DNA of 64,000 bases from Escherichia coli. GTDB taxonomy: Bacteria > Pseudomonadota > Gammaproteobacteria > Enterobacterales > Enterobacteriaceae. This document shows positions 49,521-49,824 of the stretch, piece by piece (position 1 is the stretch's first letter; every line of letters starts with the position of its first letter). A program made the position numbers and the translations under genes. The stretch lies in the NCBI RefSeq assembly GCF_044324785.1, contig NZ_CP172127.1; one strand, given 5' to 3'. The notes beneath the pieces were generated by a model, which saw nothing but the letters and a program-made list of their open reading frames with translations, did not search any database and was not told the origin of the DNA.

Positions 49521-49824
49521 AAAATTGTCCAGTATGTAAAATAATTGTTATGTGGTCGGATGAGTTCTAATTTAGCCGTCGCCGGAGAAAAGGGAAAAGG
49601 GGAGTGCGGGGTTTGTGATGGGATTCAAAAAGAATACGCCCATTGGAAATGCCGGATACGACGCTTGTCGCGTCTTATCTGTATATGGACACCTCTCGTT
49701 GTGCAAGTACGATGTTCGGAAAATTAATAGGTAACGTGGTGGTCGTCCTGACAGGAGGGCAGGCTACGGAGATAGTAAATCACGCTATCTTTAGCCCGCT
49801 CATCCGGGGGCATCTTCGACCTTT

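Follow-up and report, generated by a model that had tools for sequence, protein, structure and literature searches.

A strain-specific 1.93-kb insert splits a BIME unit between fadH and ygjK in Escherichia coli

In Escherichia coli, tandem arrays of z2 and y REPs are defined as BIME-2-type (PMC3333891). Binding of TnpA_REP depends on a mismatch within the REP stem, and the enzyme cleaves BIMEs at C|T sites in REP feet and linkers (PMC3333891). Gyrase cleavage sites are strongly enriched in BIME-2 (PMC6379681), and the junctions of lambda bio phages, of F' amplification and of several IS families are known to fall at REPs (PMC1525189). Here we describe a 64-kb stretch of E. coli DNA (the window) in which an orphan ORF lies between fadH and ygjK with a REP-type palindrome on either side; the features of the locus are listed in Table 1. 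The two palindromes belong to a single BIME unit, of which each forms one half, and do not represent separate REP clusters; the DNA between them represents an acquisition, not a loss. In what we regard, taken as a whole, as the likely explanation, the pair is the resident BIME-2-type unit of the ygjK-fadH spacer, composed of a z2-like REP, a linker of ~19 nt and an inverted y-type REP.

Table 1. Features of the fadH-ygjK locus and the neighboring BIME in the window
Feature	Coordinates	Strand	Remarks
Second BIME, rlmG-fadH spacer	47409-47487	.	second REP abutted by higBA empty site
fadH	47502-49520	-	
fadH upstream spacer, common to carriers and non-carriers	49521-49650	.	aligns in 5,419/5,426 genomes; layout identical in L001-L006
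Left REP, z2-like, iREP on + strand	49651-49679	+	ends after TTATC; CGGCC and CTAC/CTGG tail gone
Insert, 1,933 bp	49680-51612	.	251/5,426 genomes; chromosome only, single copy
Insert left end	49680-49795	.	no homologue elsewhere in E. coli genomes (distant blastn: this locus only)
Out-of-frame remnant of C-terminal RxW..M..DER module (intact in paralogs)	49796-49855	-	blastn/tblastn
513-aa orphan ORF (cargo)	49825-51366	-	three tandem ~150-165-aa repeats
ORF upstream (promoter) region	51367-51586	-	homologous to upstream region of icd-linked paralog
Right-end filler TGCGTATATCCCCGATGCCGCGGGCC	51587-51612	.	holds GATGCCG (51600-51606); CGGGCCAGG = 51607-51615
AG (remaining half of GTAG) and right REP, y-type	51613-51644	+	stem 51615-51644
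Spacer, 12 nt, right REP to ygjK stop codon	51645-51656	.	unaltered by insertion
ygjK	51657-54008	-	stop codon 51657-51659

An earlier note on this DNA had picked out a REP-like unit between fadH and the 3' end of the ORF and a canonical REP at 51616-51643, and both are found there. The right unit differs from the published Y-REP core GGATGCGGCGTAAACGCCTTATCC by 1 mismatch in 24 (0.00 matches are expected from shuffles) and is identical at 30 of 35 positions to the Y reference, one of three reference REPs quoted in PMC11208160 with which typing was done. The left unit (49651-49679) has z2-type arms, CGACGC...GCGTCTTATC, a combination that matches once in the window, with 0.00 expected; its identity to the Z2 reference is 29/37, and that of intact orthologues in other strains is 32-33/37. 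It lacks the last 5 nt of the 3' arm as well as the CTAC tail and is thus REP-like, not canonical; the truncation changes the predicted hairpin from -22.8 kcal/mol (intact) to -14.2 kcal/mol. Predicted folds of both REPs contain internal loops, that is, the internal stem mismatch. As for the GTAG tetranucleotide, the right REP in the window reads CCAG, with only AG kept, and the left REP is without the CTAC side. Among the insert-less orthologues, the GTAG of the right REP is kept in every unit examined, and the CTAC complement at the left REP is intact in some units and degenerate (CTGG, CAGG, TTAC) in others. The loss of GTAG in the window is a consequence of the insertion and no argument against homology. 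With its start 12 nt past the ygjK stop codon, the right REP is extragenic and near the 3' end of the gene. REPs at or within about 15 nt of a stop codon can reportedly stall terminating ribosomes and lower expression, a finding that is said to go back to work by Liang, Rudd and Deutscher in 2015. If this applies to the y REP next to ygjK, the arrangement is the same with and without the insertion.

We read the empty site in nine insert-less strains, including K-12 (L001-L006, L016, L022 and L024). In eight of them, the fadH-ygjK spacer measures 225, 325, 425 or 525 bp and consists of the conserved fadH upstream region followed by one to four tandem BIME units of ~100 bp. Each unit is built from a z2-like REP (GCCGGATGCGACGCTTGxCGCGTCTTATCCGGCC), a linker of ~19 nt that ends in GTAG, and a y REP (GGCGGATAAGGCGTTCACGCCGCATCCGCC). 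The array thus has the inverted REPs, short linker, tandem arrangement and strain-variable copy number of BIME-2; the corresponding pair in the window is 1,933 bp apart. The ninth strain (L004, positions 422-591; strain EC10 and similar) carries a 170-bp spacer allele that has no BIME but an unrelated hairpin, GCCGGACGGCGGTAATACAGTCGTCCGGC, instead. The spacer therefore exists in at least three states: a plain hairpin, a BIME of one to four units, and a split BIME with the insert. The closest left flank is that of L022, an allele of three BIME units whose first REP differs slightly; none of the insert-less strains read had the exact allele that preceded the insertion.

In a survey of 5,426 complete E. 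coli genomes, the fadH-ORF-ygjK arrangement was present in 251 (about 5%) and absent from ~5,170. The window and the BIME alleles run collinear through 49679 (...GCGTCTTATC), and collinearity resumes at 51613 (AGGGCGGATAAGG); insert-less genomes match the right-junction query only from its position 43 (51613) onward. On the left, the break falls at the final base of the REP-like unit; on the right, it lies 3 nt before the canonical REP. The 1,933 bp of the insert (49680-51612) replace at least 22 bp, CGGCCTGGGGGATTGCACATGT, of one BIME unit, namely, the 3' foot of the left REP (CGGCC), the linker, and two bases (GT) of the GTAG at the right REP; with a multi-unit array as the target, the loss would exceed 22 bp. 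The left junction, probed with a 90-nt query, is covered in exactly 251 genomes, i.e., in all carriers. The right junction is covered by megablast in 207 carriers; the remaining 44 form a class that is about 5% diverged, includes O145:H28 and has small indels in the right-junction region. Direct reading of two members of this class (L007 and L008) gave the same breakpoints as in the window, and both junctions are also the same in a 392-aa two-repeat variant and a 508-aa variant of the ORF. A putative 140-bp variant in strain GPEC1446 (H112) proved to be an alignment artefact, its locus being that of L008. Each carrier has one copy, at this one locus and always on the chromosome.

The alignment to insert-less strains that the earlier note had proposed thus places both breakpoints (49679 and 51613) on the REPs. 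Its view that the REPs bracket the insert holds, but they do so as one split BIME and not as separate clusters. They mark the boundaries of the event, as suggested, with breakpoints 0 to 3 nt from the REP edges; of the two directions that it had left open, acquisition stands and loss does not. It had also reasoned that REPs identical regardless of the insert would speak against their involvement: REPs are present in both states, but they are not identical, since truncation of the left REP and loss of GT from the right REP are confined to carriers.

One ambiguity concerns the right end of the insert. GATGCCG plus CGGGCCAGG (51600-51615; in the O145-type class, CGCGACCAGG takes the place of CGGGCCAGG) looks like a left-type REP reduced to its 5' and 3' feet, and the likeness of these 16 nt is specifically to the ...GGCCAGG tail variant that ends multi-unit alleles in their last unit. 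The feet may be a remnant of a second BIME unit, or a chance likeness. The event may have taken place in a multi-unit array, or else the right breakpoint could be as much as about 13 nt further left, and in both cases the insert is inside the BIME. The short-linker BIME allele (CCGGCCAGGGCGG) that a shifted breakpoint calls for was not found in insert-less genomes, where the best single-piece matches have the normal, 17-nt-longer linker.

Both junctions are common to every carrier class examined, and the allele goes back to one old event; its age follows from a dS of 0.043 between the two carrier classes. Carriers are found with and without the neighboring higBA genes, on different fadH haplotypes, a distribution that suggests later recombination in the flanks of the insert. 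The block from ygjP/rlmG through fadH (43500-49500) is 93-96% identical to K-12, compared with 97-98% elsewhere in 40-64 kb, and the first 700 nt of fadH are 92-95% identical to those of other strains, including another insert carrier. The pattern of identity points to a deeply polymorphic or recombinant haplotype for this block.

Comparison of the window with K-12 revealed five indels longer than 50 bp, three of which involve REPs or BIMEs, in line with the expectation that REP clusters are junctions of strain-variable segments. The higBA toxin-antitoxin pair, present between fadH and rlmG in K-12 and in some carriers, is missing from the window (47385-47501, junction 47478-47487). K-12 has 930 bp more at this site, bounded by a 9- to 10-nt direct repeat, GCATCCGGC, which forms the 3' arm of the second REP in the rlmG-fadH BIME and also that of a small REP-like hairpin beside higA. 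In the rnpB-yhaC spacer (window ~12508-12532), the additional 370 bp of K-12 comprise two extra tandem units of the rnpB 3' flank and a Y/Z1 BIME-1, neither of which is found in the window. The difference in the alx-sstT spacer (window 42501-42523) is one extra G-rich palindromic element in K-12, of the CCCTCTCCC...GGGAGAGGG type, which is not a REP, and the aga deletion in K-12, another of the five, is not REP linked. Window positions 1-1515, which lie next to the agaW/agaA pseudogenes, have no K-12 counterpart; it appears that the aga segment deleted in K-12 is still present here.

We then consider what the insert is made of. A repeat search around it detected no terminal inverted repeats, target duplication or flanking direct repeats. 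There is no tRNA in 44-56 kb and no integrase-like ORF, so the insert does not qualify as an integrase islet. The 513-aa ORF has no convincing Pfam match (only SusE, below threshold) and no NCBIfam or PHROG match, and the insert therefore holds no transposase or integrase. It is absent from phage records, its sole "plasmid" matches being mislabelled chromosomes. Within the window, Rfam identified rnpB only, and scans for promoters and terminators stayed at background level. The G+C content of the insert (50-56%) is like that of the flanks, with no compositional anomaly. Only 16 relatives of the ORF were found among 1.84 billion representative proteins, and the family is very narrow and apparently restricted to E. 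coli. Between the two carrier classes, the ORF has a dN/dS of 0.84, which is nearly neutral, and its 392-aa two-repeat variant is the product of an unequal crossover between the internal repeats. An AlphaFold2 model of the N-domain had a mean pLDDT of 53, too low for a fold search, and a literature search on the ygjK-fadH islet found nothing.

As single-gene islets, members of the family occupy three junctions between core genes: fadH-ygjK, icd and putP-efeU. The icd paralog (455 aa, 60% identity; L010, 3394-4761) lies beside a transposase remnant, and the putP-efeU paralog (447 aa; L021, 2917-4260) occurs in O157:H7. The family architecture consists of one to three N-terminal domains of ~150-165 aa and two to three C-terminal RxW..M..ARxYL modules of ~55 aa. 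The copy in the window is without the C-terminal modules and retains only an out-of-frame trace of the first one, ~115 bp from the junction; this remnant is 73% identical to L010 by blastn (E 2e-20) and gives a weak tblastn match to KLPIPYEVIRKWSMMTSDER (E 0.09). Homology to the icd paralog extends from 49796 to 51586 and includes 220 bp upstream of the ORF, a region of 78% identity that is continuous with the ORF alignment and ends at ...AAAAGAAAAGAG. An IS end was considered for the leftmost 116 nt and rejected, distant blastn matching no other E. coli locus, and a donor locus with the outer ends of the insert (49680-49795 and 51587-51612) was not found. No REPs were found near the paralogs at icd and putP-efeU, and the gene family is therefore not REP linked. 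Taken together, these features are those of a decayed piece of an islet gene and not of a self-contained mobile cassette.

Several other histories could in principle have placed this fragment between two REPs. If the REPs lay near the insert by coincidence and were unrelated to the breakpoints, nothing beyond the commonness of REPs in intergenic DNA would speak for it. The empty-site alignment refutes this idea, to which we give practically no chance: each breakpoint is at most 3 nt from a REP edge, and because the window contains only four REP loci (7 REPs, ~0.5% of its length), the position of both insert ends on REPs is far beyond chance. Loss, with an ancestral ORF deleted in about 95% of strains and the REPs as deletion endpoints, is most improbable and largely refuted. 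The flank-like G+C content of the insert, the age indicated by dS and the unusually divergent adjacent fadH haplotype would all fit it, but the empty site holds an intact canonical BIME whose 22 bp of REP foot, linker and GT are missing from carriers, and deletion cannot create these. Recombination between the two REPs, which are inverted, would invert the DNA between them and not delete it, so the empty state is not producible in this way either; the truncated REP is the derived state, and patterns for the junction and the promoter each had 0 matches in 100,044 GTDB species representatives. Another route to a gain would be homologous recombination among REPs, a REP-flanked donor segment having replaced the linker through crossovers in REP homology. 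Such events are on record for the amplification of F'128 and for the junctions of lambda bio (cited in PMC1525189), and the foot-like remnants at the right end of the insert are compatible with one. They should leave complete hybrid REPs, however, and the left REP here is truncated at an abrupt breakpoint. Moreover, the flanking REPs carry the locus-specific variants of the recipient (the foot GGCGGAT...ATCCGCC in the right REP and a z2-like interior with CCGGAT in the left REP); because carriers and non-carriers have these variants in common, the REPs are resident and not imported, and the truncation of the left REP is found in carriers only. As the two known paralog loci also lack REPs, we hold this route to be very unlikely.

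REP-specific enzymology, in which TnpA_REP (RAYT) acting at C|T sites or a REP-targeting element of the IS110 or IS3 type brought in the segment and was later lost, is unlikely too, though the right junction fits it in detail. On the minus strand, this junction falls exactly after the CT of the CTAC complement (CCGCC-CT|GGCC versus CCGCC-CT|ACATG), which is the RAYT iREP-II site GGCC|TAC (PMC3333891) and also the CT core of the IS621 target ATCAGGC-CT-AC (PMC11208160). The left junction reads C|T in the product (TTATC|TGT), and the 17-nt linker loss under the alternative reading of the right end is flanked by two CCT repeats, at which a pair of C|T cuts would also be located. The target, however, reads TTATC|CGG at the left breakpoint in every allele seen, never C|T, and this breakpoint is 5 nt from the canonical site, inside the stem. 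The two C|T junctions are on opposite strands, a misfit with single-strand insertion by RAYT. The insert itself has neither a transposase nor a bridge-RNA-like end, paralog homology starting 26 nt from the right junction, and it is single copy and never found at other REPs. IS1397, finally, targets the REP loop, and the breakpoints here are elsewhere.

Our preferred explanation is that the allele probably arose by a one-off illegitimate insertion at a break-prone BIME, followed by descent and flank recombination. The structure, breakpoints, single origin, direction of gain and absence of mobility genes are demonstrated, whereas the cause of the break and its repair are inferred. In one ancestral E. 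coli lineage, a 1.93-kb fragment from the narrow, E. coli-restricted family of orphan single-gene islets integrated inside a BIME unit and removed its inner 22 bp or more. The joining was probably non-homologous and non-transpositional, at a break inside the BIME. Such a break might stem from BIME fragility, through gyrase cleavage, hairpin processing or TnpA_REP nicking, and might have been repaired by end-joining to a stray fragment. Since then, the allele would have been passed on by inheritance, with homologous recombination carrying it from one flank haplotype to another. In the supplements of the gyrase Topo-seq and RAYT papers, there is no entry for ygjK or fadH. It counts against this explanation that no donor locus with the outer ends was found, so the joining chemistry is unreadable from a donor-recipient comparison, and that the precise allele before insertion was likewise missing from the strains read. 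The GATGCCG/CGGGCCAGG motif at the right end hints at a more complex event, such as one in a multi-unit array or a hairpin-associated partial duplication or deletion. We see a slim chance that the locus is a footprint of BIME-directed enzymology: TnpA_REP (or gyrase) would have cleaved the z2 and y REPs at, or close to, their inner feet, and a stray piece of a gene would have become caught in the break. The fit of the right junction to the CT core and the GATGCCG/CGGGCCAGG remnants would then be its traces, and BIMEs would be not only self-amplifying repeats but also occasional capture sites that seed single-gene islets.

The locus is a clear, ordinary case of a known phenomenon, REPs at a strain-variable junction, with novelty limited to this locus; no new element type or mechanism is revealed. 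What it provides is a case, resolved to the base pair and at population scale (251 genomes with the insert, about 5,170 without), in which a strain-specific gene has landed in a BIME. For annotation, the REP-like unit at 49651 should be treated as a resident REP that has been damaged and that lies outside the insert, and the ygjK-proximal REP, with any 3'-end function that it may have for ygjK mRNA, is kept in carriers.

Among described systems, the E. coli BIME-2 (Bachellier/Gilson nomenclature; Ton-Hoang et al. 2012, PMC3333891) is the closest. The locus has in common with it a z2-like REP and an inverted y REP joined by a short linker, the extragenic position at a gene 3' end, the one to four tandem units depending on the strain and, in intact alleles, the GTAG/CTAC tail and stem mismatch. 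It departs from it in that the unit in the window is split by 1.93 kb, with no 3' foot on the left REP and only AG on the right REP, and in that the left REP of this locus has CCGGAT (y-like) where Z2 has CCTGAT. The gyrase fragility of BIME-2 (Espeli & Boccard 1997; Sutormin et al. 2019, PMC6379681) is relevant insofar as arrays of the BIME-2 type, to which the locus belongs, are enriched for gyrase cleavage sites; published cuts, however, favor y REPs, loops or mismatches, whereas the damaged REP here is z2-like.

As at the REP junctions and IS targets surveyed by Tobes & Pareja (2006, PMC1525189; IS1397, IS621), foreign DNA lies inside a REP/BIME and rejoining of both sides nearly rebuilds the repeat. 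Unlike the REP-targeting ISs (IS1397/ISKpn1 and the IS621/IS110 family), the insert has no transposase or recombinase, exists in one copy and has no target duplication, about 22 bp of the target having been deleted instead. Its breakpoints are not in the REP loop, in contrast to those of IS1397, and the resemblance to IS621, which uses the CT of ...GGCCTAC, is partial: the right junction is at the CT of CTAC on the minus strand, but the left junction is not at a target CT. The locus likewise differs from a RAYT/TnpA_REP unit (REPtron, REPIN), whose C|T sites are on one strand; the right junction fits the minus strand, but the left target reads ATC|CGG. The nearest parallel within the window is higBA in the rlmG-fadH spacer, also a strain-variable module, of roughly 0.9 kb, with a boundary exactly on a REP 3' arm in a BIME. 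The higBA indel, however, is bounded by the 9-nt direct repeat GCATCCGGC and looks microhomology or REP-arm mediated, whereas the insert between fadH and ygjK has no such repeat.
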